A stretch of DNA of 64,000 nucleotides. Source: a virus. The notes beneath the pieces were generated by a model. The model was not told where the DNA came from and searched no databases. It worked only from the letters and a program-made list of their open reading frames with translations. Where the stretch lies: positions 96,001 to 160,000 of the IMG/VR virus record IMGVR_UViG_3300027759_000002. One strand, 5' to 3'. A program made the position numbers and the translations under genes. Positions 6,178 through 30,657 of the stretch are shown here, one piece after another; the first letter of the stretch is position 1, and each line of letters begins with the position of its first letter.

Positions 6178-6690
6178 ATGACAGCAATAAACAGAAGTCC
6201 TGAGAACACAAACCTATTACAGTCAACGAAGTTTTTATTAACGTTTGATAGAATTAGAACCACACAATATTTCTGTCAAACTGTTAACCTTCCTGGTGTA
6301 ACTTTAGGTGAAGTAAGCCGAGCAACACCATTCTTGGACATGTATTCACCTGGTACCAAGTTAACATATGATCCATTGGTTGTAGAATTCATATTAGATG
6401 AAGAACTACAAGGATGGAAAAACATGTACGATTGGTTTTTGTCAATGGCTGATCCAGATGGATTTGAGAAACGTGATGGCAGTAGAGAACTACAAACCAA
6501 TAAACACTTCTCAGATGCCACATTAAGTATACTAAGTGGACTAAACAATCCTTTGGTTAGAATACACTACACCAACTTATTTCCTTTGAGTATTAGTGAT
6601 ATTAGATTTGACACCACACAATCTGCGGATACAATATTGACCGCAACGGCAACATTTAGATATCAATCGTATACCTACTTGACAGTGTAA
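6178..6690 (+). CDS. 3: tail tube terminator / tail completion protein
   Basis: YFCQTVNLPG, TYDPLVVEFILDEEL, SDATLSIL; position after gp23 as in T4-like phages. Confidence 0.8.
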   Translation: MTAINRSPENTNLLQSTKFLLTFDRIRTTQYFCQTVNLPGVTLGEVSRATPFLDMYSPGTKLTYDPLVVEFILDEELQGWKNMYDWFLSMADPDGFEKRDGSRELQTNKHFSDATLSILSGLNNPLVRIHYTNLFPLSISDIRFDTTQSADTILTATATFRYQSYTYLTV

Positions 6691-21353: not shown

Positions 21354-21550
21354 AGTCCCATCGGGATGGGAAAAGTCAAAGGTGGAACCTGGTCCTACCG
21401 AGACTTAATACTCCAGGAAAAAGGTGCTCCACCTACCTTAGGAGCGTTAGTAAAACGGGCAGACGTAATTGCCGCTGGATAACGTAACCAGTACCTTAAG
21501 CGATACGCCTTCGGGGTATCAATTTTTAATCTCGCTTTCAGGAGAAACTT
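21354..21550 (+). ncRNA. structured hsp20 leader with a ROSE-like thermometer hairpin
   Basis: Multiple hairpins and a possible pseudoknot; TCTCGCT-TTC-AGGAGA pairs over the SD with a bulged G. Confidence 0.55.
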
Positions 21551-21994
21551 ATGACTAATCTTAAAGATTATTTCGGTGTCGATTTCGGCAAAATTCAACC
21601 ATTCACCGTGGGATTTGATGACACAATGTCAATCATGCGTGAAGCTGCAGCGGCTGCATCTAAAGCCGTATCTTATCCTCCATACAACATCAAACAGGTA
21701 ACTGCAAACAAGTACGTCATTGAAATGGCTGTTGCTGGTTTCGCAAAGTCTGATATTGAGATGACTTTGGAAGGAAACAAACTTGTAATTAAAGCTGCAT
21801 CTAAAGACGCAGAGGAAGAAGAATATTTGTACAAAGGCATTGCCAACCGTGCATTTGAACGTACCTTCACTCTCGCAGACAAAGTTGAAATCAAAGATGC
21901 AGAGTTGATGAATGGTATGTTGAAGATTTGGCTAGAAAACATGGTCAAAGCACAAGATGCTATTAAGAAAATTTCAATCAAGGCCAAAGAATGA
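21551..21994 (+). CDS. hsp20: small heat shock protein (IbpA-like)
   Basis: YPPYNI, IEMAVAGF, YKGIANRAFERTFTL, NGMLKI. Confidence 0.95.
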   Translation: MTNLKDYFGVDFGKIQPFTVGFDDTMSIMREAAAAASKAVSYPPYNIKQVTANKYVIEMAVAGFAKSDIEMTLEGNKLVIKAASKDAEEEEYLYKGIANRAFERTFTLADKVEIKDAELMNGMLKIWLENMVKAQDAIKKISIKAKE

Positions 21995-22074
21995 AAAAAT
22001 TTCTACAAAGTATACTTGAAGCCATACAGGCCATCAAAGAACACAGGTCAGACCATACCTTAAAAGGTAGATAA
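21991..22074 (+). CDS. 27-aa peptide MKKFLQSILEAIQAIKEHRSDHTLKGR
   Basis: ATGA overlap with the hsp20 stop; not in the supplied ORF track. Confidence 0.4.
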   Translation: MKKFLQSILEAIQAIKEHRSDHTLKGR

Positions 22075-22079
22075 TCATA

Positions 22080-22105
22080 AAGGGTCTTGACAGACCCTTT
22101 TTTTT
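22080..22105 (+). terminator. intrinsic terminator
   Basis: AAGGGTCT-TGAC-AGACCCTT plus T-run. Confidence 0.85.
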
Positions 22106-22115
22106 GTGTTATAAT
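22087..22115 (+). promoter_or_regulatory. sigma70 promoter embedded in the terminator
   Basis: TTGACA 22087-92, 17 nt, TG-N-TATAAT 22110-15. Confidence 0.8.
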
Positions 22116-22124
22116 ATAGACATT

Positions 22125-22307
22125 ATGAAAACTGAAAAACAATACATCAAAAAAGTTCGTGTTAAAACCACGTTGGAGAATTACTACGTTTGTTCACCAG
22201 AGACTAAAGAGATTGATGGTGTTCAATTTGTTTATGTAATTAAGAACATTGGTATTAGGGAAACACCTAAATTAATGCGAAAAGAATCATTAGAATATAT
22301 CAGATAA
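22125..22307 (+). CDS. hypothetical protein
   Basis: 60 aa from ATG 22125, just after the predicted TSS. Confidence 0.55.
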   Translation: MKTEKQYIKKVRVKTTLENYYVCSPETKEIDGVQFVYVIKNIGIRETPKLMRKESLEYIR

Positions 22308-22382
22308 GGGCTGATAGCTTAATGGTAAAGCAGTGAACTCATAATTCATTGAGTCTAGGTTCAATTCCTAGTCAGCCCACCA
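22308..22382 (+). tRNA. tRNA-CAU (Met or Ile2)
   Basis: Cloverleaf, loop CTCATAA, encoded CCA. Confidence 0.88.
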
Positions 22383-22395
22383 ATTTTAAAAAAAT

Positions 22396-22911
22396 ATGAA
22401 AACAAAATTTCGTAATGCATATATGAAAGTGGCCGAGACATTTGCACAATTGTCCTCGGCTCGCAGACTTCATGTTGGTGCTATTGTAGTCAAAGATGAT
22501 AGAATCATTTCAATTGGTTACAATGGTATGCCTTCAGGTTGGGATAATGATTGTGAAGATAAAGAATACATGAGTGTTGATGCTGGCGGTTGGTTGGATT
22601 TGAATGAGATTGAAGAACGCTGGCCAAACAAAGAACAGATGCTTCCAAAGGAAGACAATCGTTGGAGAAGATATGCACTCAAAACTAAACCAGAGGTTTT
22701 ACATGCTGAAACTAATGCGATTGCAAAACTTGCTAAGTCTACCGAATCTGGTATGGGTGCTACTATGTTTGTTACCCACGCTCCATGTTTGGACTGTGCC
22801 AAACTTATCTACCAAAGTGGTATTAGCAGTGTTCTATATCGGAACTCTTATCGGAGTGATGATGGTATCGAATTCCTACAAAAAGCATCAGTCTGGGTAG
22901 AAAAAATCTAA
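22396..22911 (+). CDS. cd: dCMP deaminase
   Basis: VGAIVV, GYNG, HAETNA, PCLDC. Confidence 0.92.
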   Translation: MKTKFRNAYMKVAETFAQLSSARRLHVGAIVVKDDRIISIGYNGMPSGWDNDCEDKEYMSVDAGGWLDLNEIEERWPNKEQMLPKEDNRWRRYALKTKPEVLHAETNAIAKLAKSTESGMGATMFVTHAPCLDCAKLIYQSGISSVLYRNSYRSDDGIEFLQKASVWVEKI

Positions 22912-22955
22912 TTCTCCTAAATAACTTGGGGTAATTGTGCCCTTAGGAGACCAGG

Positions 22956-23462
22956 ATGATTATTCGTGTGGTTAACTGTCCAGACAAAGATTTTAAGCCC
23001 TTTGTTGAAAGAGCTGCCCAATTCTTCGCTAAAGAATTAATACCTAATACACGAATAAGAAATAATTGTATAACAGAAATTAAATTTTGTACCAAAATAA
23101 CTGAATATGGTTTTGCTAGTATTGAAGATTATAATACAAGAAAACTACCTAGAGAATTCCTAATAGAAATAAATCCAAATATCGGATCCAGAAGAATACT
23201 GGAAACCTTGGCGCATGAAATGGTTCATGTGAAACAATATATTGATGGTGAAACGAATGATGAGTTGACCAGATGGCGAGGTAAGAAGGTTGATCCAGAT
23301 AAGATTGATTATTGGATTCAGCCATGGGAGATAGATGCTTACGGCCGTGAACCTGGACTTATTACAAAGTTTGCTGTATCAGAAAATCTATGGGAAATAC
23401 TTGATGATTTTGTTGATCCATCTGGTCCAATAAATTATAACCCGATTGCCTGGAAAAAATAA
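22956..23462 (+). CDS. HExxH zinc metallopeptidase-like protein
   Basis: LAHEMVHVKQY and PWEIDA; late promoter CTAAATA at 22917-23. Confidence 0.65.
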   Translation: MIIRVVNCPDKDFKPFVERAAQFFAKELIPNTRIRNNCITEIKFCTKITEYGFASIEDYNTRKLPREFLIEINPNIGSRRILETLAHEMVHVKQYIDGETNDELTRWRGKKVDPDKIDYWIQPWEIDAYGREPGLITKFAVSENLWEILDDFVDPSGPINYNPIAWKK

Positions 23463-23465
23463 AAT

Positions 23466-23999
23466 ATGTCACATCCAACTCAACAAGAGTTTGTAAAAAA
23501 GTTATCATCGGATTTTCCACAAAACTTCAATAACATAAAGATGTTGGAAGTTGGTAGTTTAAATATCAACGGTACCATGAAGATACATTTTAATGAATGT
23601 GAGTATGTTGGTGTTGACGTTGATGCAGGAAAAGATGTTGACTTGGTTTGTGAAGGCCAGCTTGTCGACCATGCAGATGGCACATACGACACCACAGGTT
23701 CTTGTAATTGTTTCGAACACAATCCACATTGGATAGAAACATTTCAAAACATGTATCGTATGACCAAAAAAGATGGATTAGTTTTTATCGTAGTACCAAC
23801 AACAGGTTATCCTGAACATGGTACATCTAATAAAGCACCAAATGATAGTCCTTTAACCATTGCAAAAGGTTGGGAATATTACAGTAATCTTACAGAAGAA
23901 GATTTTTGTAAAAACTTTGATATGGATAGTATGTTTCATACTTACAAGTTTGAAACAAATAATACTCCCGAATTATTTTTTTACGGATTTAAAAAATAA
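23466..23999 (+). CDS. class I SAM-dependent methyltransferase
   Basis: MLEVGS, GVD, CFEHNP. Confidence 0.75.
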   Translation: MSHPTQQEFVKKLSSDFPQNFNNIKMLEVGSLNINGTMKIHFNECEYVGVDVDAGKDVDLVCEGQLVDHADGTYDTTGSCNCFEHNPHWIETFQNMYRMTKKDGLVFIVVPTTGYPEHGTSNKAPNDSPLTIAKGWEYYSNLTEEDFCKNFDMDSMFHTYKFETNNTPELFFYGFKK

Positions 24000-24012
24000 T
24001 TTTAAAAACCGC

Positions 24013-24041
24013 TTGCCAAGACATAAAAGTTCCTATATAAT
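24013..24041 (+). promoter_or_regulatory. sigma70 promoter P1 of the tRNA region
   Basis: TTGCCA-17-TATAAT; predicted TSS coincides with the ATG at 24048. Confidence 0.8.
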
Positions 24042-24047
24042 AACACT

Positions 24048-24158
24048 ATGAAAAATTTTAAACATAAACCCTTTACGTTACAGTCCGAGTATCGCACAAT
24101 TAATTGTGGTGATAGCTCATGGGCGCCGACTGGGTTTTGTGTAAAGAGAGAGAACTAA
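24048..24158 (+). CDS. putative attenuator leader peptide, 36 aa, all 20 amino acids
   Basis: MKNFKHKPFTLQSEYRTINCGDSSWAPTGFCVKREN; 29 different codons; not in the supplied ORF track. Confidence 0.65.
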   Translation: MKNFKHKPFTLQSEYRTINCGDSSWAPTGFCVKREN

Positions 24159-24188
24159 TACATAAGTTCTAAAAAAGACTTCAAACAC

Positions 24189-24221
24189 AAGACCCTAGAC
24201 CTAAAAAATCTAGGGTTTTTT
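24189..24221 (+). terminator. attenuator terminator
   Basis: ACCCTAGA-CCTAAAAAA-TCTAGGGT plus T6; 5' arm can instead pair with 24130-24142. Confidence 0.75.
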
Positions 24222-24224
24222 GTT

Positions 24225-24277
24225 TGTTGTTTCAATACAACACAGTGGTTGCCAGGTCATCGAATCTGGTATACAAT
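24225..24277 (+). promoter_or_regulatory. promoter P2 with upstream palindrome
   Basis: TGTTGT-N6-ACAACA, 6 nt, then TTGCCA-17-TACAAT. Confidence 0.7.
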
Positions 24278-24283
24278 ACACAC

Positions 24284-24299
24284 TGTTCTTTAAAAATTT
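24284..24299 (+). promoter_or_regulatory. boxA-like antitermination element
   Basis: TGTTCTTTAAAAATTT versus the rrn boxA TGCTCTTTAACAATTT. Confidence 0.6.
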
Positions 24300-24311
24300 G
24301 TCGTAGTTTAT

Positions 24312-24385
24312 TGGGGTATAGCATAGTGGTAGTGCTGCGGACTTTGAATCCGTAGGTCCTTGTTCGATTCAAGGTACCCCAGCCA
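24312..24385 (+). tRNA. tRNA-Gln(UUG)
   Basis: Cloverleaf, loop CTTTGAA, CCA. Confidence 0.9.
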
Positions 24386-24457
24386 TATAAAAACACATTA
24401 GAGATAAGCAGGAACTGGTTCGAAACGGGTCGCCTCGTTTAGTGTGTTTCTATATGG
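24383..24457 (+). repeat. inter-tRNA hairpin element, copy 1
   Basis: CCATATAAAAACACA...AGTGTGTTTCTATATGG; second copy at 25110-25183. Confidence 0.7.
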
Positions 24458-24547
24458 AAGATGATGCAGCGGGGTTGGTCCTGCGACTGGCCTTGAAAAC
24501 CAGGTTCTCAGAAATGGGATGGGGTTCGACTCCTCCGTCTTCCGCCA
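24456..24547 (+). tRNA. tRNA-Ser(UGA), 8/4 fold
   Basis: 8-bp acceptor GGAAGATG/CGTCTTCC, 4-bp T stem, long variable arm, G73. Confidence 0.82.
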
Positions 24548-24552
24548 AACAT

Positions 24553-24640
24553 AGAAGGTTGCCCGAGCGGTTAAGGGAGCAGTTTGCTAAACTGTCGTTG
24601 CGAAAGCGGCGCATCGGTTCGAATCCGATACCTTCTGCCA
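24553..24640 (+). tRNA. tRNA-Ser(GCU)
   Basis: Loop TTGCTAA, long variable arm, CCA. Confidence 0.9.
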
Positions 24641-24646
24641 AAACAT

Positions 24647-24722
24647 GTAGGTGTGACCCGAAAGGCTAGGGAGCAGATTGCAAATCTGTTACATGCAGGT
24701 TCGATTCCTGTCACCTACTCCA
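24647..24722 (+). tRNA. tRNA-Cys(GCA)
   Basis: Loop TTGCAAA, U73, CCA. Confidence 0.9.
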
Positions 24723-24726
24723 AACA

Positions 24727-24779
24727 TGTTGTAGGAATACAACAGTCTGGTTGACAATGATTCATGGTTGTGTTATACT
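24727..24779 (+). promoter_or_regulatory. promoter P3 with upstream palindrome
   Basis: TGTTGT-N6-ACAACA, 6 nt, then TTGACA-17-TATACT with TG extension. Confidence 0.78.
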
Positions 24780-24807
24780 TCATCTATGAATTGAGAAATC
24801 AATCAAA

Positions 24808-24823
24808 CGTTCTTTAAAAATTT
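24808..24823 (+). promoter_or_regulatory. boxA-like element
   Basis: CGTTCTTTAAAAATTT; part of a 25/27 repeat with 24285-24311. Confidence 0.6.
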
Positions 24824-24835
24824 GTTGTAGTTAAT

Positions 24836-24910
24836 GCTCCGTTCGTCTATCGGTTAGGACGCTGCCCTTTCAAGGCGGAAAGACCAGTTCGATTCTGGTA
24901 CGGAGTACCA
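24836..24910 (+). tRNA. tRNA-Glu(UUC)
   Basis: Loop CTTTCAA, CCA. Confidence 0.9.
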
Positions 24911-25030
24911 TTTGTTTTGCTGACGTAAGCGCTTGAGTAAACGTCAACTCTAACTAACTATGTGTATAAACGGTAATGCTGCAGCTAAATCCGTTGAGCA
25001 TAGCAAATAGTGCGTCAGCAAAACAAATGG
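24908..25030 (+). ncRNA. candidate structured RNA closed by an 18-bp perfect stem
   Basis: CCATTTGTTTTGCTGACG / CGTCAGCAAAACAAATGG enclosing internal hairpins. Confidence 0.5.
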
Positions 25031-25037
25031 TAGTTAT

Positions 25038-25112
25038 GGGGGTATAACTTAACGGCTAAAGTAGTAGGCTTTTAACCTATTAATCAGAGTTCGATTCTCT
25101 GTACCCCTACCA
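25038..25112 (+). tRNA. tRNA-Lys(UUU)
   Basis: Loop CTTTTAA, CCA. Confidence 0.9.
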
Positions 25113-25183
25113 TATAAAAACACACTTCCGACAGCAGGCGGAACTCAGGATAAGTCCATTCGGGTGAGTGTGTTTCTATATGG
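25110..25183 (+). repeat. inter-tRNA hairpin element, copy 2
   Basis: Same terminal stems as 24383-24457, different interior. Confidence 0.7.
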
Positions 25184-25274
25184 AGGCATTGTAGATATGG
25201 CGTGTTCTGCAGCGGACTGTAAATCCGTTCCCCCGTGGTAAACAATGTTGGTTCGACTCCAACTGCCTCCACCA
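25182..25274 (+). tRNA. tRNA-Tyr(GUA)
   Basis: Loop CTGTAAA, long variable region, CCA. Confidence 0.85.
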
Positions 25275-25280
25275 AATCCC

Positions 25281-25460
25281 GTTACTACTTCCGTTAAAGT
25301 AGCGTTTGATTAGCGATAGAGATCCGGTGGCAGAAAACCGTTAGCGAGAGAAATCTCAGGCTCTGATAGGCAGTTCCCTCTGCACACAGACATTAGAATA
25401 AAAGGGATGGACAGAGTAACTTCTCAATTAAGGGCTTGTGTGGAAACAAGTAGCTTATCC
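25281..25460 (+). ncRNA. candidate structured RNA
   Basis: No ORF; stems GTTACT/AGTAAC, CGGT/ACCG, GAGA-GAAA-TCTC, CTCTG/CAGAG. Confidence 0.4.
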
Positions 25461-25466
25461 TAATTT

Positions 25467-25541
25467 GGTCTTAAAGTGTTCATGGACGCACATCAGCCTG
25501 TCACGCTGAAAGAAGGGGATCGTTACCCCTTAAGACCGCCA
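25467..25541 (+). tRNA. tRNA-Asp(GUC), non-canonical T-loop
   Basis: Loop CTGTCAC; T-loop ATCGTTA; CCA. Confidence 0.82.
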
Positions 25542-25566
25542 AATAATTGTTGTGAAGGAAAAGAAA

Positions 25567-25923
25567 ATGAATATAAACGATATGGTTGGAAAAGTATTCA
25601 CATCGGTAACACAAGATGGTTATGAGATGGTATTTGCGAATGAAACTGAAAAATTCAGATTCTTCCATTATCAAGATTGTTGCGAAACAGTTTACATTGA
25701 AAGCATTGTAGGTGAGTTATCGGATTTAGAAGGCGAAACACTTTTGATTGCTGAAGAAGTATCAGGTGAAATACCAGAACCTAAAGAAGATGAATACATT
25801 GAATCTCGCTCATGGACATTTTACAAATTTGCTACACGCAAAGGTTATGTTGATGTTCGTTGGTTGGGAGAATCAAACGGTTACTATTCCGAATCAGTAG
25901 ATTTAGAATACGAGTTAGTATAA
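25567..25923 (+). CDS. hypothetical phage protein
   Basis: QDCCETVYIE...WTFYKFATRKGYVDVRWLGESNGYYSE; AAGGA RBS. Confidence 0.75.
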   Translation: MNINDMVGKVFTSVTQDGYEMVFANETEKFRFFHYQDCCETVYIESIVGELSDLEGETLLIAEEVSGEIPEPKEDEYIESRSWTFYKFATRKGYVDVRWLGESNGYYSESVDLEYELV

Positions 25924-25930
25924 AGAATAT

Positions 25931-26005
25931 TCCAGAGTAGCACAGCGGTAGTGCAGTTGACTGTTAATCAATTGGTCGTAGGTTCGATCCCTGCCTCTGG
26001 AGCCA
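25931..26005 (+). tRNA. tRNA-Asn(GUU)
   Basis: Loop CTGTTAA, CCA. Confidence 0.9.
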
Positions 26006-26011
26006 ATACGT

Positions 26012-26212
26012 TCCGCTTGGTTAGCGGATACTGTGACCCGCAGGATAAGAAGTGAGGTGACTCTCAAGGGTGGTAGTCTTTTTACCGAAAGGCCGCTGGC
26101 AATGCGTTAACGATCCTGGTCGGGAAGCGGGTGGAGGTTATGGGTGTATTCCCCTTGAAAAAGGACATGTTTACAACTATGATATAATTACCGCCGCAGG
26201 ATGCAGAGCACT
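26012..26212 (+). ncRNA. candidate structured RNA, about 200 nt
   Basis: GC-rich, no ORF; stems TCCGCT/AGCGGA, CCCGCAGGAT/ATCCTG..CGGG, GCGG/CCGC. Confidence 0.45.
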
Positions 26213-26219
26213 TAATTTC

Positions 26220-26293
26220 GCCCTATTAGTATAATGGCATTACACCTGTTTTGTAATCAGGTTACGGCAGTTCGATTCTGTCATGGGGCACCA
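26220..26293 (+). tRNA. tRNA-Thr(UGU)
   Basis: Loop TTTGTAA, CCA. Confidence 0.88.
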
Positions 26294-26299
26294 GTTTTT

Positions 26300-26375
26300 C
26301 TCTCTGAAGCGTTATCAGGTTGCGTACACGGTTTGGGGCCGTGTGGTCAAGGTTCGAATCCTTGCAGGGAGACCA
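26300..26375 (+). tRNA. tRNA-Pro(UGG)
   Basis: Loop TTTGGGG, CCA. Confidence 0.88.
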
Positions 26376-26383
26376 GTTTTTTT

Positions 26384-26458
26384 GGGGGCAGCAGTGGGCT
26401 GCGGCGTTCCCTTGCAAGGATCGTGACTAGAAGGATTCGATTTCCTCGGCCTCCACCA
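26384..26458 (+). tRNA. tRNA-Ala(UGC), atypical D arm
   Basis: G3:U70 pair, loop CTTGCAA, 4-nt D-loop, CCA. Confidence 0.72.
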
Positions 26459-26462
26459 ATTA

Positions 26463-26537
26463 GGTTCAGTAGCATAGTGGCAGTGCAGCATCTTCATACG
26501 GTGCGTTGTGTGAGTTCGATTCTCACCTGAACCACCA
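26463..26537 (+). tRNA. tRNA-CAU (Met or Ile2)
   Basis: Loop TTCATAC, CCA. Confidence 0.85.
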
Positions 26538-26543
26538 AATTAT

Positions 26544-26618
26544 GGGCGATTAGTAAAATGAATATTACACAAGGCTACGAACCTTGAAGTGGGAGTTTGA
26601 TTCTCTCATCGCCCTCCA
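26544..26618 (+). tRNA. tRNA-Arg(ACG)
   Basis: Loop CTACGAA, CCA. Confidence 0.87.
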
Positions 26619-26622
26619 AAAT

Positions 26623-26697
26623 GCCGAGGTAGCTCAGTGGTAGAGCAGCGTCTTGATAAGGCGTTGGCCAAGAGTTCAATTCTCTTTCTCGGTACCA
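26623..26697 (+). tRNA. tRNA-Ile(GAU)
   Basis: Loop TTGATAA, CCA. Confidence 0.9.
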
Positions 26698-26700
26698 AAT

Positions 26701-26774
26701 TTCTCGCTGGTGTAATGGCAGCATAGCGGTCTCCAAAACCGTTGGTTGGGGTTCGAGTCCCTAGCGGGATGCCA
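26701..26774 (+). tRNA. tRNA-Trp(CCA)
   Basis: Loop CTCCAAA, G73, CCA. Confidence 0.87.
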
Positions 26775-26795
26775 ATTTTAAAAAAGGTGATTAAT

Positions 26796-27281
26796 ATGAA
26801 AAATTTCAATATAGAAGAAGTCAGACAATACCTTGCAAATCAAGGTCCTGATACCAAGGTTTATCTTGGTGCCGACTCTGAAAGAATCAGGGTAAATGGT
26901 GTTTGGTATGCTGACTATGCTCTAGCAGTTGTAGTTCATATTGATGGCCGACATGGTTGTAAGATTTTCGGATATGTTCACCGTGAATTGGATTACGACC
27001 ATAAGAAAAGTAAACCTGCTATGAGGTTGATGACTGAAGTTTATAAAGTTTCAGAATTGTTCCAATCATTAGCAGAAGTGTTGGAAGATTATCATGTTGA
27101 AGTTCATCTTGATTTAAATAAAGATGATATTCATGGTAGTTCATGTGTTGTTCAGCAAGCGATTGGTTATATCAAAGGTACATGTAATATGACACCAATG
27201 GTTAAACCAGATGCACCTGCTGCAAGTTTTTGTGCTGATAGATTGAAAAGAATCTTGGCAGACCAAGAAGCACTTCAATAA
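26796..27281 (+). CDS. RNase H-like YkuK/DUF458 family protein
   Basis: VYLGADS, RLMTEV, VEVHLDLN, AIGYIKG, KPDAPAAS..AD. Confidence 0.75.
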   Translation: MKNFNIEEVRQYLANQGPDTKVYLGADSERIRVNGVWYADYALAVVVHIDGRHGCKIFGYVHRELDYDHKKSKPAMRLMTEVYKVSELFQSLAEVLEDYHVEVHLDLNKDDIHGSSCVVQQAIGYIKGTCNMTPMVKPDAPAASFCADRLKRILADQEALQ

Positions 27282-27284
27282 TAT

Positions 27285-27359
27285 GGAGAAATTAGTTTAG
27301 TGGTAAAACCACGGGTTGTGATTCCGTTATCACCAGTTCGATCCTGGTATTTCTCCCCA
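27285..27359 (+). tRNA. tRNA-His(GUG)
   Basis: G-1:C73 pair, loop TTGTGAT. Confidence 0.9.
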
Positions 27360-27364
27360 AATAT

Positions 27365-27439
27365 GCCCCGTTAGCTCAGTGGTAGAGCAGTGCTTTTACA
27401 CGGCGAAGGTCGGCAGTTCGAAACTGTCACGGGGTACCA
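27365..27439 (+). tRNA. tRNA-Val(UAC)
   Basis: Loop TTTACAC, CCA. Confidence 0.87.
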
Positions 27440-27443
27440 ACAT

Positions 27444-27519
27444 GCTGCTTTAGCTGATGTGGTCATAGCGGTGGTCTGAAGAACCATTGAAAGAGGTTCG
27501 ATTCCTCTAGGCAGCACCA
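27444..27519 (+). tRNA. tRNA-Phe(GAA)
   Basis: Loop CTGAAGA, CCA. Confidence 0.9.
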
Positions 27520-27524
27520 AATAT

Positions 27525-27601
27525 GCCCAAGTGACGGAATAGGTATACGTACTTGATTCAAAATCAAGGTTATGTGGGCTCGAATCCCACCTTGGGTACC
27601 A
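27525..27601 (+). tRNA. tRNA-Leu(CAA), short variable loop
   Basis: Loop TTCAAAA; variable region only GTTAT. Confidence 0.85.
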
Positions 27602-27602
27602 T

Positions 27603-27676
27603 GCTCTTATAGGTAAATGGCATACCACATCCATGGTAAGGATGTATCCTAAGTTCGATTCTTAGTAGGAGCACCA
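27603..27676 (+). tRNA. tRNA-Thr(GGU)
   Basis: Loop ATGGTAA, CCA. Confidence 0.85.
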
Positions 27677-27873
27677 ACTTGTTTTAATGTTGTTAAGATA
27701 AATTCTTTTTCTTGTGTGATATATAATTCATCATCTTCAAAAGTTTTTATCTTAGTATCATATGATGGAACAAATTCAGAATCAACACAGTAGTAACCAT
27801 TAGGTTCATATGTTTGTTGTGCATACAATCCGTAAAACATTTCTACTGTAGGTCTTTTTGAAGTTGGTATCAT
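27649..27873 (-). CDS. small antisense ORF (74 aa) inside the tRNA array
   Basis: MIPTSKRPTVEMFYG...; ATAAATA late-promoter motif at 27885-27879 just upstream. Confidence 0.45.
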   Translation of the reverse strand: MIPTSKRPTVEMFYGLYAQQTYEPNGYYCVDSEFVPSYDTKIKTFEDDELYITQEKEFILTTLKQVGAPTKNRT

Positions 27874-27886
27874 ATGAGTATTTATT

Positions 27887-27963
27887 GCCCCGGTGACGGA
27901 ATTGGTATACGTGTTGGTCTTAGAAGCCAAATTTTGAGAGTTCGAGTCTCTCCTGGGGCACCA
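27887..27963 (+). tRNA. tRNA-Leu(UAG), short variable loop
   Basis: Loop CTTAGAA; variable region only ATTTT. Confidence 0.85.
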
Positions 27964-27968
27964 AATTT

Positions 27969-28043
27969 CTGGCGTTAGTATAATGGATAATACAGTAGGC
28001 TTCTACCCTTCTAATGGGAGTTCGATTCTCTCACGCCGGACCA
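27969..28043 (+). tRNA. tRNA-Arg(UCU)
   Basis: Loop CTTCTAC, CCA. Confidence 0.85.
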
Positions 28044-28060
28044 TTTTTTAGGAGTTTATT

Positions 28061-28639
28061 ATGCCAGCAGTATTTTTAGTAAGTGACACACACTTTGGTC
28101 ACGCTGGTGTGTGTAGATTTCTTCGTGATGACGGAACAAAACTTCGGCCATGGGATAATCCCGATGAAATGGATGAAGAAATGATTAAGCGTTGGAACGA
28201 AACAGTCAGACCAAACGATAAAGTTTACCATCTTGGTGATGTTGTTATTAATCGTAAAGCAATGAATACTCTATATAGACTTAACGGTGATAAGGTTCTT
28301 ATTCGTGGTAACCATGATATCTTCCGTGATGAGGAATACAGACAACACTTTCGTGAACTACGTGCTTATCATGTAATGAATGGAATGATCCTGTCACATA
28401 TTCCAATTCATACGGAAAGTCTTGGTCGTTTCGGTGTAAACATCCATGGCCATTTACATTCCAATCGTGTTCAGATTCGTGGGTTCAATGGTAAACCAAT
28501 GGGTATTGATAACAGATACCATTGTGTTTGTGTTGAACAAACAGATTTTAGACCGATTCTTTTTGAAGATGTTATCAAACGAATTAAAGAAGAAGGTGGT
28601 GAGGTCGGTTTCAAAAGTGGAAACGACCGTGCTATGTGA
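28061..28639 (+). CDS. calcineurin-like metallophosphoesterase
   Basis: SDTHFGH, LGD, GNHD, HGHLH motifs. Confidence 0.88.
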   Translation: MPAVFLVSDTHFGHAGVCRFLRDDGTKLRPWDNPDEMDEEMIKRWNETVRPNDKVYHLGDVVINRKAMNTLYRLNGDKVLIRGNHDIFRDEEYRQHFRELRAYHVMNGMILSHIPIHTESLGRFGVNIHGHLHSNRVQIRGFNGKPMGIDNRYHCVCVEQTDFRPILFEDVIKRIKEEGGEVGFKSGNDRAM

Positions 28640-28640
28640 T

Positions 28641-28723
28641 GCGAGTATGGGGGAATTGGTAGACCCATCAGACTTAAAATCTGCCGCCTCGGCGTACCGG
28701 TTCGACTCCGGTTACTCGTACCA
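28641..28723 (+). tRNA. tRNA-Leu(UAA)
   Basis: Loop CTTAAAA, variable stem-loop, CCA. Confidence 0.9.
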
Positions 28724-28733
28724 AAAATAATGC

Positions 28734-28762
28734 TTGACTTCTTAATAAGAAGCCTATATAAT
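28734..28762 (+). promoter_or_regulatory. sigma70-type promoter
   Basis: TTGACT-17-TATAAT upstream of the Gly tRNAs and groES. Confidence 0.8.
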
Positions 28763-28773
28763 ACACACATGAT

Positions 28774-28848
28774 GCGGGTATGGTGCTAGTGGTAACACAA
28801 GACCTTGCCAAGGTTTAGTTGTGAGTTCGATTCTCACTACCCGCTCCA
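28774..28848 (+). tRNA. tRNA-Gly(GCC)
   Basis: Loop TTGCCAA, U73, CCA. Confidence 0.9.
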
Positions 28849-28870
28849 AGTTAACTACAACAGATTTTAT

Positions 28871-28944
28871 GCGGGATTAGTTTAGTGGTAAAACAGTAGA
28901 TTTCCAATCTCCGGTTGAGAGTTCGATTCTCTCATCCCGCTCCA
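28871..28944 (+). tRNA. tRNA-Gly(UCC)
   Basis: Loop TTTCCAA, U73, CCA. Confidence 0.9.
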
Positions 28945-28950
28945 TTTAAT

Positions 28951-29017
28951 GCGGTTTGTAATAGTACGATACAAGGTACCCCCTTGTGTTAACTGAGCAA
29001 AGCAGTAGACCGCTCCA
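28951..29017 (+). ncRNA. 67-nt tRNA-Gly-like mimic or pseudo-tRNA
   Basis: Acceptor GCGGTTT/AGACCGC, U73, CCA; miniature D arm; ACAAG/CTTGT stem with loop GTACCCC; T-like arm ACTG-AGCAAAG-CAGT. Confidence 0.55.
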
Positions 29018-29030
29018 TTTTGAGGACACT

Positions 29031-29276
29031 ATGAATATTAAACCCTTGCATGATAAAGTATTGATTGAACGTATTGAGAATGTCAAAGAGACCGCTTCAG
29101 GCATCATCCTAAAACATTCCGAAGATCCAGATAAAGCAAGAGTACTTGCAGTTGGTCCGGATGTTACAGAAGTCCAGGTCGGTGATGTGGTTCAACCAGA
29201 CTGGGGTAAGGCCGCAGCAGTGCAAGATTATTTCGTGGTGAAGATTGAAGACATAGCTTACATCTACGGAGAGTAA
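29031..29276 (+). CDS. groES: co-chaperonin GroES-like
   Basis: IKPLHDKVLIER...TASGIIL...VLAVGP...VQVGDVV; GAGG RBS. Confidence 0.9.
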   Translation: MNIKPLHDKVLIERIENVKETASGIILKHSEDPDKARVLAVGPDVTEVQVGDVVQPDWGKAAAVQDYFVVKIEDIAYIYGE

Positions 29277-29278
29277 AC

Positions 29279-29506
29279 ATGTCTGATGGTGGTAAAGGTT
29301 CTAGTCCAAGGCCGTTTAGTGTTTCACAGAAAACATTTGGTAATAACTACGACAATATTTTTAGAAAAAAATCACCAAAAGAAATACAAGAAGACAAATA
29401 CGAACAAGAAGAATTTGATAGAATTTTAGAAGAAAATCGTATGCGCCAAAAGGCTTTAGATGCCATGGTGGCAGAAAATCAAAGATTAGGTTTATACGAC
29501 AACTAA
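29279..29506 (+). CDS. hypothetical protein
   Basis: MSDGGKGSSPRP start, GGAG RBS. Confidence 0.65.
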   Translation: MSDGGKGSSPRPFSVSQKTFGNNYDNIFRKKSPKEIQEDKYEQEEFDRILEENRMRQKALDAMVAENQRLGLYDN

Positions 29507-29509
29507 TAT

Positions 29510-29582
29510 AGCGGGTTGGTGAAATGGTATCACAGTGGGCTCATAATCCTCAGTTCCGGTTCGACTCCGTGACCCGCAACCA
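29510..29582 (+). tRNA. initiator-like tRNA-fMet(CAU)
   Basis: 1:72 mismatch, GGG in the anticodon stem, loop CTCATAA. Confidence 0.8.
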
Positions 29583-29596
29583 TTAATCTTTATACA

Positions 29597-29884
29597 TCAC
29601 GGCGATTCAATTTTATCTTTGCAAGAACGTGAATTGTTTACTGAAGTTGTATGTATCAATGTAGAACCATTTCGTTTTACATTTGAACATTTATATTCAC
29701 AGACTTGTAAATCTTTCGGTCCACTTTTTTCAGTAAAACTTCTTGTCAATTTACAATAATCATTATTGTTAGTCGCTTTGGTGTATATGACAGCATCCGG
29801 CATCAAGTTTATATTGATGGTTGGATGAGTGACCATCAGTGTTACACTTGTGGTCAACAACGTAAATAAGAGTTTTTTATTCAT
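29597..29884 (-). CDS. hypothetical exported Cys-containing protein
   Basis: Hydrophobic N-terminus, 4 Cys; overlaps the stop of the upstream minus-strand gene. Confidence 0.55.
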   Translation of the reverse strand: MNKKLLFTLLTTSVTLMVTHPTININLMPDAVIYTKATNNNDYCKLTRSFTEKSGPKDLQVCEYKCSNVKRNGSTLIHTTSVNNSRSCKDKIESP

Positions 29885-30657
29885 CTTCCTACGTAAACTT
29901 TAGGCATTGATTCTTCCCTTCTTTTTTCTTCTGATTTAGGAAATAACCCATCACCATATTGTGGATATTTCTGTTGTCTATCATATGCTACCCACATAAA
30001 CACACCAGCCATAACAAAAATTATAATCACAATAGCAACGCCTGTAGCAAATTCATCTCTGAGTTTTCTCATTCGTGCTAAACGGCGTTTATCTAATATC
30101 GCTTGTTGTTGCATTTGTTTGATAAGAAGAACCTTTTGTTCTTTACCCATCTCTTTCATCATTTCTTCGACTTCGGTATATAAAGCACCGAGCTCTGGAG
30201 GACTTTGATAAATCATCAACTCACGTAAATCAACTGACATTTGTTCAAGTTGTTTACGCATGAGTACACGTTGTAAGGCACGTTTACCTAATGATGCATC
30301 TCCGGTATAAACTTGTGTCTTAGCAATTTTTTCTTCTTCTTCAAAAACAGCCATACATTTATAAAAGTTATCATAGTATGTGCCTAGGTGTTCACCAATC
30401 TCTTGGTAGATGTTGGTAGTTTCTCCACCCTTTTTGTTTAGTTCAATTACACGATTTTTTTCCGTAATGAAGGCATTTCTTTGTGCTACACTTGCAGGTT
30501 TTTCTGGTGGATGGAGCTTTTTGAACTGGTCGTCAAGATCCTTGAGGACGTCCTTGACTTCCCCAGCTGCACCTTTAATATCTTTGTATAGTTTACATCC
30601 GGCTTTGACTGCCGAAACCGCACCATTTGCGAGGGCAAAGAGTGTGAATGGATCCAT
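29881..30657 (-). CDS. membrane-anchored helical protein
   Basis: 258 aa, amphipathic MDPFTLFALA N-terminus, coiled coil, one C-terminal TM helix. Confidence 0.75.
   Translation of the reverse strand: MDPFTLFALANGAVSAVKAGCKLYKDIKGAAGEVKDVLKDLDDQFKKLHPPEKPASVAQRNAFITEKNRVIELNKKGGETTNIYQEIGEHLGTYYDNFYKCMAVFEEEEKIAKTQVYTGDASLGKRALQRVLMRKQLEQMSVDLRELMIYQSPPELGALYTEVEEMMKEMGKEQKVLLIKQMQQQAILDKRRLARMRKLRDEFATGVAIVIIIFVMAGVFMWVAYDRQQKYPQYGDGLFPKSEEKRREESMPKVYVGR

Follow-up and report, generated by a model that had tools for sequence, protein, structure and literature searches.

Positions 24013-24221 on the plus strand of the viral DNA analysed here (a stretch of 64,000 nucleotides, referred to throughout as the window) probably form a ribosome-dependent transcription attenuator that uses a single short leader ORF to sample nearly every tRNA that the phage can supply. 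The regulation of phage tRNA genes is, to our knowledge, almost unstudied, and a search of the full-text literature found no published account of their control by a leader peptide. The reason why phages carry tRNA genes at all has itself been debated for decades, the proposals including codon compensation and the replacement of degraded host tRNA. According to a more recent proposal, such genes allow phages to evade tRNA-cleaving defences (PMC10264068, PMC11555353); the former of these articles does not mention attenuators, leaders, promoters or terminators.

The window derives from an uncultured T4-like phage, the genome of which is a single contig of 179,754 bp with a G+C content of 37% and contains one copy of the element. 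The phage encodes T4-type portal, polymerase, clamp loader and gp46-like proteins, and its DNA polymerase is approximately 50% identical to those of T4-like cyanophages, which are, by that gene, its nearest cultured relatives.

Layout of the element and of the tRNA array

The element opens with a sigma-70-type promoter, P1 (24013-24041), of the form TTGCCA-17-TATAAT, whose -35 box (24013-24018) and -10 box (24036-24041) match the consensus at 11 of 12 positions. Because the -10 box is separated by 6 bases from an ATG, the usual start site would fall on the A of this ATG at 24048, in agreement with what the initial annotation had read from the same promoter. Of 83 distinct relatives, 76 have a promoter of the P1 type (at least 10 of 12 matches) in the corresponding position. 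The leader ORF that begins with this leaderless ATG (24048-24158, 36 codons plus stop) specifies all 20 amino acids and overlaps several of the RNA elements to be discussed. These are, in 5' to 3' order, segment 1 (24062-24071), a candidate anti-antiterminator arm for pairing with segment 2 that proved to be unsupported; a central hairpin spanning codons 14-24 (24087-24118), recognised by folding and in relatives and possibly acting as a pause hairpin; a Trp codon (24120-24122) that is invariant in an alignment of 67 peptides; and segment 2 (24132-24142, within codons 29-32), which forms the 5' arm of the antiterminator. A small hairpin seen by folding surrounds the stop codon (24151-24170, pairing 24151-24156 with 24165-24170), and is followed by segment 3 (24185-24195), the 3' arm of the antiterminator, whose bases 24192-24195 are also part of the stem of an intrinsic terminator (24192-24221; stem 24192-24199/24209-24216, then a T-run to 24221). 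The terminator, the antiterminator and the small hairpin enclosed by the latter had all been proposed at the outset, and all of them are present. No Rfam family, leader families and the T-box included, matched within 24013-24224 when 21500-30500 was searched with cmscan at E values of up to 1.

On the 3' side of the terminator, a second promoter, P2 (24249-24277, 10 of 12 matches), and a boxA-like motif (24284-24296), which may resemble rrn boxA, precede the tRNA array (24312-29582), all of them on the plus strand. This array comprises 27 genes with 26 anticodon species for all 20 amino acids. With default settings ARAGORN detects 25 tRNAs, none of them for Ala; relaxed ARAGORN combined with folding adds tRNA-Ala(UGC) at 26384-26458, with G3:U70 and A73, and a long-arm, Ser(UGA)-like tRNA at 24456-24547, by which the initially claimed set of 27 downstream tRNAs for all 20 amino acids is reached. 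The caveat raised at the same time, namely that P2 lies beyond the terminator, is borne out and applies well outside the window: a P2-type promoter occurs in 56 of 73 distinct downstream flanks (77%), the boxA-like motif is kept in 54 of 73, and the two are found together in about three quarters of the relatives. In such members, which are the majority, read-through can do no more than supplement an independent tRNA promoter. The other 17 of the 73 flanks have no P2, and in these the first tRNA begins 2-30 nt past the terminator.

Relatives of the element

The methyltransferase gene located upstream of the element led to 38 IMG/VR loci, and two DNA-pattern scans of IMG/VR returned 75 and more than 119 stretches, leaving approximately 70 distinct elements once chance matches had been removed; the completeness of the amino-acid set was not selected for by the search patterns. 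The order of parts is common to these elements. P1 is followed by a start codon and an ORF of 30-44 codons, which contains the central hairpin, then the invariant Trp codon and, at its end, segment 2, which is rich in G. Past the stop codon, segment 3, rich in A and C, leads directly into the terminator and its T-run, after which there is either P2 with the boxA-like motif or a nearby tRNA. A tRNA on the same strand lies within 400 nt downstream in 60 of the 60 elements with enough sequence, and within 30 nt in 12 of them. The element was also looked for in cultured phages: when the window element, a divergent member and the peptide served as DNA and tblastn queries against 50,697 phage records, the matches did not rise above chance level. 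A plain MAFFT alignment of the full element misaligns the divergent classes by 1-3 nt; use was therefore made of a shorter alignment, together with duplex and swap tests carried out sequence by sequence.

Coding selection on the leader ORF

The reading frame of the leader is open in 69 of 69 distinct relatives, as opposed to 3 and 0 for the other two frames, and the length changes that have occurred inside the ORF are in frame. Single-base codon differences between relatives are synonymous in 34-53% of cases compared with 19-31% expected, and the dN/dS-like ratio of the ORF amounts to 0.21-0.52. Taken together, these comparisons support the view that the leader ORF is kept open and is under coding selection. 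The starts in relatives are either a leaderless ATG (33 of 83 distinct members) or an ATG, GTG or TTG led by a Shine-Dalgarno sequence.

The peptides of four diverse members have no match in Pfam or PHROG at E values of up to 1. AlphaFold2, run on the peptide with 67 sequences, returned a pLDDT of 60.9 and a pTM of 0.12 with no secondary structure, which for so short a chain is weak evidence. Both the sequence and the length of the peptide vary freely upstream of the invariant Trp, although the Ser immediately before this Trp is likewise invariant or nearly so. Among the leader peptides, two short motifs, EYRT and SW, are conserved; two outliers without the EYRT motif still contain all 20 amino acids. 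The codons of the leader are rare in the phage's own genes (P = 1e-4), and some of these rare codons are forced by the RNA helices.

Maintenance of the complete amino-acid set

The window leader had been described as an ORF of 36 codons with all 20 amino acids, 29 distinct codons and 18 different residues in H6-A26, and each of these counts holds: there are 29 distinct codons if ATG is counted (28 different sense codons among 35), codons 6-26 contain 18 kinds of amino acid, and there are no runs of one regulatory codon. Could such a set have arisen by chance? Given the amino-acid composition of the phage, the probability of finding all 20 kinds in 36 residues starting with M is approximately 0.002, and 20 kinds are reached in 5 of 15,072 windows of 36 residues taken from real ORFs. 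A check of this sort had been suggested initially, and its outcome is divided: the set is rare for a chain of 36 residues, but the window contains 142 ATG-ORFs of 30-45 residues, two of which have 20 kinds. The full set in the window alone is, hence, not beyond chance, and the case therefore rests on the family comparison. A second ORF with all 20 amino acids (42 codons, 6398-6526), which is without promoter context, was taken as the expected chance case.

Among 67 distinct peptides of 30-44 residues, all 20 kinds are present in 44 and at least 19 kinds in 57. These numbers were compared with a tree-aware null in which the tree, the branches and the columns of 334 parsimony changes were kept and only the derived residues were shuffled. 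The strictest version, permuting within each column, produced a mean of 2.6 complete peptides and a maximum of 25 in 2000 runs, and three nulls that drew or permuted residues across columns produced 1.5-1.8. The part from the start to the Trp codon contains 17.6 kinds in 25.4 residues versus 15.3 for the null (null maximum 16.7), and the part up to segment 2 contains 18.45 kinds versus 16.03. The presence of each amino acid is conserved far better than its position: His occurs in 62 of 67 peptides and in at most 39 at any single column, being drawn from four columns; Gln occurs in 63 of 67, in at most 34 at any single column, and is drawn from five; and Ile, also found in 63 of 67, reaches at most 22 at any single column and is drawn from seven. 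These comparisons support active maintenance of the full amino-acid set by selection, while the positions of its members drift. The initial annotation had recommended asking of relatives whether diversity and stem covariation are kept and the peptide sequence is not, and this is the pattern found: the complete set is kept in 44 of 67, the positions drift and, as described below, the arms covary.

An exception is one clade whose 30 codons specify 16-18 kinds and whose arrays comprise only 12 tRNAs. A separate observation concerns Gln, which was lost in one lineage and regained by its sister at the next codon.

The terminator, the antiterminator and other hairpins

The antiterminator of the window consists of 11 bp (24132-24142/24185-24195) with an energy of -17.8 kcal/mol. 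A duplex of segments 2 and 3 can be formed in every element (-14 to -24 kcal/mol), despite the fact that the arm sequences differ between classes. The 2:3 energy averages -18.6 kcal/mol with an arm's own partner versus -12.3 kcal/mol with partners from dissimilar relatives, and only 4.8% of arms from dissimilar relatives match the energy of the own partner; shuffled partners average -9.4 kcal/mol and are as good as the own partner in 0.4% of cases. The length of the G-run in segment 2 tracks that of the C-run in the 5' arm of the terminator. In a plain MAFFT alignment, the 2:3 helix is 84.5% paired versus 31-59% for slid controls, and the terminator is 88.8% paired, with changes on both sides in five of its eight pairs (slid controls over both helices, 29-65%). 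The covariation score of the terminator is 0.232 versus 0.112 for shuffled alignments and was reached by 0 of 500 shuffles, as was likewise the case for the score of the 2:3 helix. As judged from these alignments and partner swaps, the arms of the antiterminator covary, and the helix that they form is mutually exclusive with the terminator through the shared bases 24192-24195.

All 36 distinct versions have the central hairpin, with energies of -5 to -14.6 kcal/mol and a mean z of -2.35, and its stem is made longer by in-frame insertions. The small hairpin at the stop codon is 72.6% paired where it is present and is missing in several classes. As for segment 1, its pairing with segment 2 (24062-24071 with 24132-24142) is part of the full-length MFE structure of the window (-11.1 kcal/mol) and reaches no more than nominal significance there (p = 0.03). 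Over the family, the mean z is -1.3 and own partners equal swapped ones, and the 1:2 anti-antiterminator was dropped from the model.

Ribosome position and the choice between conformers

The two conformers of the window are near-isoenergetic (antiterminator -40.8 kcal/mol, terminator -39.5 kcal/mol). When the ribosome footprint is masked, folding of the window predicts the antiterminator for A-site codons 1-25, with the exception of codon 22, which gives the terminator; from codon 26 as far as the stop, it is the terminator that is predicted. In every member segment 2 is contained in the ORF, and the Trp codon is located a median of 9 nt upstream of it. The predicted switch-off point, at Trp -1 to +3, fits this spacing, and segment 2 is predicted to remain accessible as long as the ribosome stalls no further along than the Trp codon. 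A consensus-pause G at -10 (invariant Ser-Trp codons) is found in the window class and is missing in the largest divergent class.

Because the conformers differ by only approximately 2 kcal/mol, masked folding at equilibrium is mixed and noisy across the family, and it was replaced for the family-wide test by a co-transcriptional proxy in which the RNA extends up to the terminator loop. Under this proxy, 97% of elements are predicted to form 2:3; with a ribosome stalled between the start and Trp, the duplex is predicted for 99% of the positions. At equilibrium with segment 2 free, the terminator conformer is the more stable one in 77% of members; antitermination would, therefore, depend on the order of synthesis.

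Two expectations voiced at the beginning, that a stall on any early codon would free the antiterminator and that a ribosome at the stop would favour termination, are only partly upheld by these models. The former agrees with the masked folding of the window for codons 1-25 bar 22, but it does not extend to Ala and Val, which in the window leader lie past the predicted sensing window. The median number of amino-acid kinds inside this predicted sensing window is 18; Val first appears within segment 2 or later in 41 of 69 leaders, and Gly does so in 16 of 69. The latter agrees with the masked folding of the window as well; in the footprint model, however, a ribosome at the stop of long-tailed members, the window included, no longer covers segment 2. 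With no conserved 1:2 helix, read-through should follow from a delay at any point upstream of segment 2, as a sensor of many codons requires; since an untranslated leader would also read through, the element would be unable to tell an elongation stall from failed initiation.

Correspondence between the leader and the array

Of the 26 anticodon species in the array, 24 are engaged by codons of the window leader; 36-codon windows of phage ORFs average 16.9, and 0.014% of them reach 24. In the 16 members with at least 5 kb of downstream sequence, the leader covers 88-100% of the array species, the nulls giving 7 to 19; examples range from 22 of 22 species in 31 codons to 11 of 12 for small arrays. 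For each of Thr, Gly, Arg and Ser, the window leader samples both tRNAs, with an estimated P of at most 0.14, which is weak when taken alone.

The correspondence has a direction. A strict mirror of amino acids between leader and array was rejected, given that in the small-array clade 13 of 30 leader codons have no phage tRNA to read them, and the overlap between the amino acids of leader and array, calculated by hand with the hypergeometric distribution, is not significant (P of about 0.06-0.16). The converse holds, i.e. the species of the array are covered by the leader.

Proposed mechanism and alternative explanations

We infer from these features that the leader is translated in vivo, in which direction the switch is thrown and what its physiological trigger might be. 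Host RNA polymerase would start at P1, and the short leader ORF would be translated. A ribosome that keeps pace would occupy segment 2 while segments 3 and 4 are being made, whereupon the terminator would form and transcription would stop. Were the ribosome delayed between the start and the invariant Trp codon, or were it never to start, segments 2 and 3 would pair, no terminator would form, and the polymerase would read on into the tRNA genes. Selection would keep nearly one codon for each tRNA species encoded by the array, and because the leader has codons for nearly all of these species, a shortage of almost any charged tRNA would raise tRNA transcription; the extra tRNA would shut the switch again, closing a feedback loop.

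A bolder version of this scheme, which we regard as possible and put forward tentatively, is that the leader serves as a roll-call of the phage tRNA set, such that a shortage of any one charged species would turn on the whole array, the element acting both as a self-tuning homeostat and as a counter-defence trigger. Several causes of such a shortage can be envisaged: anticodon nucleases of the host or other defences that cleave tRNAs, a loss of host tRNA induced by the phage, or codon mismatch. A counter-defence function directed at tRNA nucleases is speculative; the idea is in line with recent work on phage tRNAs (PMC10264068, PMC11555353).

Might the ORF instead be an ordinary small protein gene, closed by a constitutive terminator that insulates a tRNA operon driven by P2, with the 2:3 pairing only shaping or stabilising a short mRNA? 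The occurrence of P2 in 77% of members, the moderate purifying selection on the ORF, the conservation of the EYRT and SW motifs, and the slightly greater equilibrium stability of the terminator conformer in most members all speak for such an arrangement. However, a folded protein is not required to keep a set of amino acids while their positions move, and the peptide has neither a confident fold nor a family match; a 2:3 helix that covaries and is mutually exclusive with the terminator, the 17 of 73 flanks that lack P2, the tRNA that follows the terminator within 30 nt in 12 elements, and the position of the element at the head of a tRNA array in 60 of 60 cases also argue against it, and we consider this explanation unlikely.

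Two further explanations retain a regulatory leader and differ in what it would read. The element could be a general sensor of initiation or of transcription-translation coupling, responding to ribosome availability, leaderless initiation or host shut-off, the rich amino-acid set being secondary. Without a conserved 1:2 pairing, an untranslated leader would indeed default to the antiterminator, and the 33 of 83 distinct members that are leaderless belong to a class of mRNAs that is sensitive to the state of the ribosome pool. Because it leaves unexplained both the maintenance of the full amino-acid set against drift and the 88-100% coverage of the anticodon species of the array, we rate this possibility as quite unlikely. 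The same lack of a reason for the complete set weighs against an arrest peptide that acts in cis, as TnaC and SecM do. Its core would, together with Trp, bring the ribosome to a halt at one fixed site on sensing a ligand and so free segment 2. The invariance or near-invariance of Trp and the preceding Ser is what such a peptide would display, and the Trp codon lies at the boundary where a stalled ribosome would still leave segment 2 free. Against this, the central hairpin accounts for most of the conserved nucleotides of the core, and the peptide upstream of Trp is free in sequence and length, all of which makes an arrest peptide very unlikely.

Comparison with known systems

If ribosome-dependent attenuation by a leader kept complete for the amino-acid alphabet is the correct reading, the phage would measure decoding capacity and adjust its supply of tRNA accordingly. 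Leader-peptide attenuation, known from enzyme genes and from the sensing of one or a few amino acids, would gain a form that senses almost all of them and controls tRNA genes, and the element would represent a compact natural part that reports the state of the whole tRNA pool.

The proposed mechanism belongs to a known kind, ribosome-mediated attenuation; what sets it apart is that tRNA genes are the target and that the leader is kept complete for the amino-acid alphabet. The closest parallels are the leaders of amino-acid operons (trpL, hisL, leuL, pheL, thrL and the multivalent ilvGMEDA and thr leaders), with which the element shares a short ORF in the 5' leader, a terminator in front of the regulated genes, an antiterminator that has bases in common with the 5' arm of the terminator, and rare codons in the leader; in both, which helix forms depends on where the ribosome is on the ORF, for the phage element by prediction. 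The amino-acid operon attenuators, however, carry runs of the regulatory codon, whereas here there is approximately one codon per amino acid and nearly one per phage tRNA species, and they regulate biosynthetic enzymes, whereas tRNAs lie downstream of the present element in 60 of 60 cases. Further differences are that the 1:2 pairing is not supported here, so that a stall anywhere upstream of segment 2 should count, that the antiterminator arm is located inside the ORF, and that the element is phage-encoded and matches no Rfam leader.

With the pyrBI-type and related coupling attenuators and with leader ORFs that respond to general translation stress, such as erm, cat and other antibiotic-responsive leaders, the element has in common that the output would arise from ribosome-polymerase coupling or from stalling, with no protein or ligand binding the RNA. 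Those leaders sense nucleotide pools or drug-bound ribosomes by means of a specific peptide or pause, whereas in the present case it is the composition of the ORF itself that is selected to be complete. T-box riboswitches, finally, resemble it in reading the charging of tRNA and in controlling a choice between terminator and antiterminator. In contrast to the phage element, which has a conserved, presumably translated ORF and no T-box match, a T-box binds one tRNA directly, needs no translation, and controls synthetase or amino-acid genes.

Promoters within and near the tRNA array

Two strong promoters lie inside the 27-gene tRNA array (24312-29582), one upstream of tRNA-Glu (24751-24779) and the other upstream of the Gly tRNAs (28734-28762), each with 11 of 12 matches; the array is therefore not one single transcription unit. 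A perfect promoter (22087-22115; 12/12 matches) bearing a TG extension precedes the solitary tRNA-Met at 22308, and a terminator-like hairpin at 22079-22100 shares bases with it.

tRNA and tmRNA-like genes

Two tRNAs escape standard calling. The first, a divergent tRNA-Ala(UGC) at 26384-26458 with G3:U70 and A73, whose D-loop spans 4 nt and whose anticodon stem is longer than usual, was picked up neither by ARAGORN at default settings nor by the Rfam tRNA model. The second (24456-24547), Ser-like and with a long arm, carries UGA in its anticodon loop. Default ARAGORN likewise made no call for it, and it reached 35 bits against the tRNA-Sec model, a value under the gathering score; a closely similar copy of it is located 3' of the terminator in one relative (locus L127). 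Outside the window, at 18867-19227 of contig G000:C1 of this phage's own genome, ARAGORN called a permuted tmRNA-like gene whose tag peptide has ALAA at its end.

Short leaders and a second all-20 ORF

The shortest and least complete leaders, with only 16-18 distinct amino acids, belong to a clade of relatives with 30-codon ORFs (L040, L061, L062 and other loci), whose arrays are small (10-14 tRNAs) and whose terminators lie 2-12 nt from the first tRNA, with no P2 (the promoter that here separates terminator and array). Within the window, another small ORF of 42 codons (6398-6526) also contains all 20 amino acids; lacking promoter-like context, it is read as a chance case of the sort to be expected with so many small ORFs in the window.

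The region between the terminator and the first tRNA

Adjoining the T-run of the terminator, and 6 nt 5' of the -35 box of P2 (24249-24277), lies an inverted repeat (24225-24242) composed of TGTTGT and ACAACA separated by 6 nt. Divergent relatives carry a comparable repeat at the equivalent site after the terminator, and it could serve either as an operator or as an RNA hairpin of read-through transcripts. Between P2 and the first tRNA stands a boxA-like motif (24284-24296), also found 3' of P2 in 54 of 73 distinct relatives. It seems to resemble the rrn boxA antitermination signal and may protect P2 transcripts, together with those reading through from the leader promoter P1, against terminators within the array.
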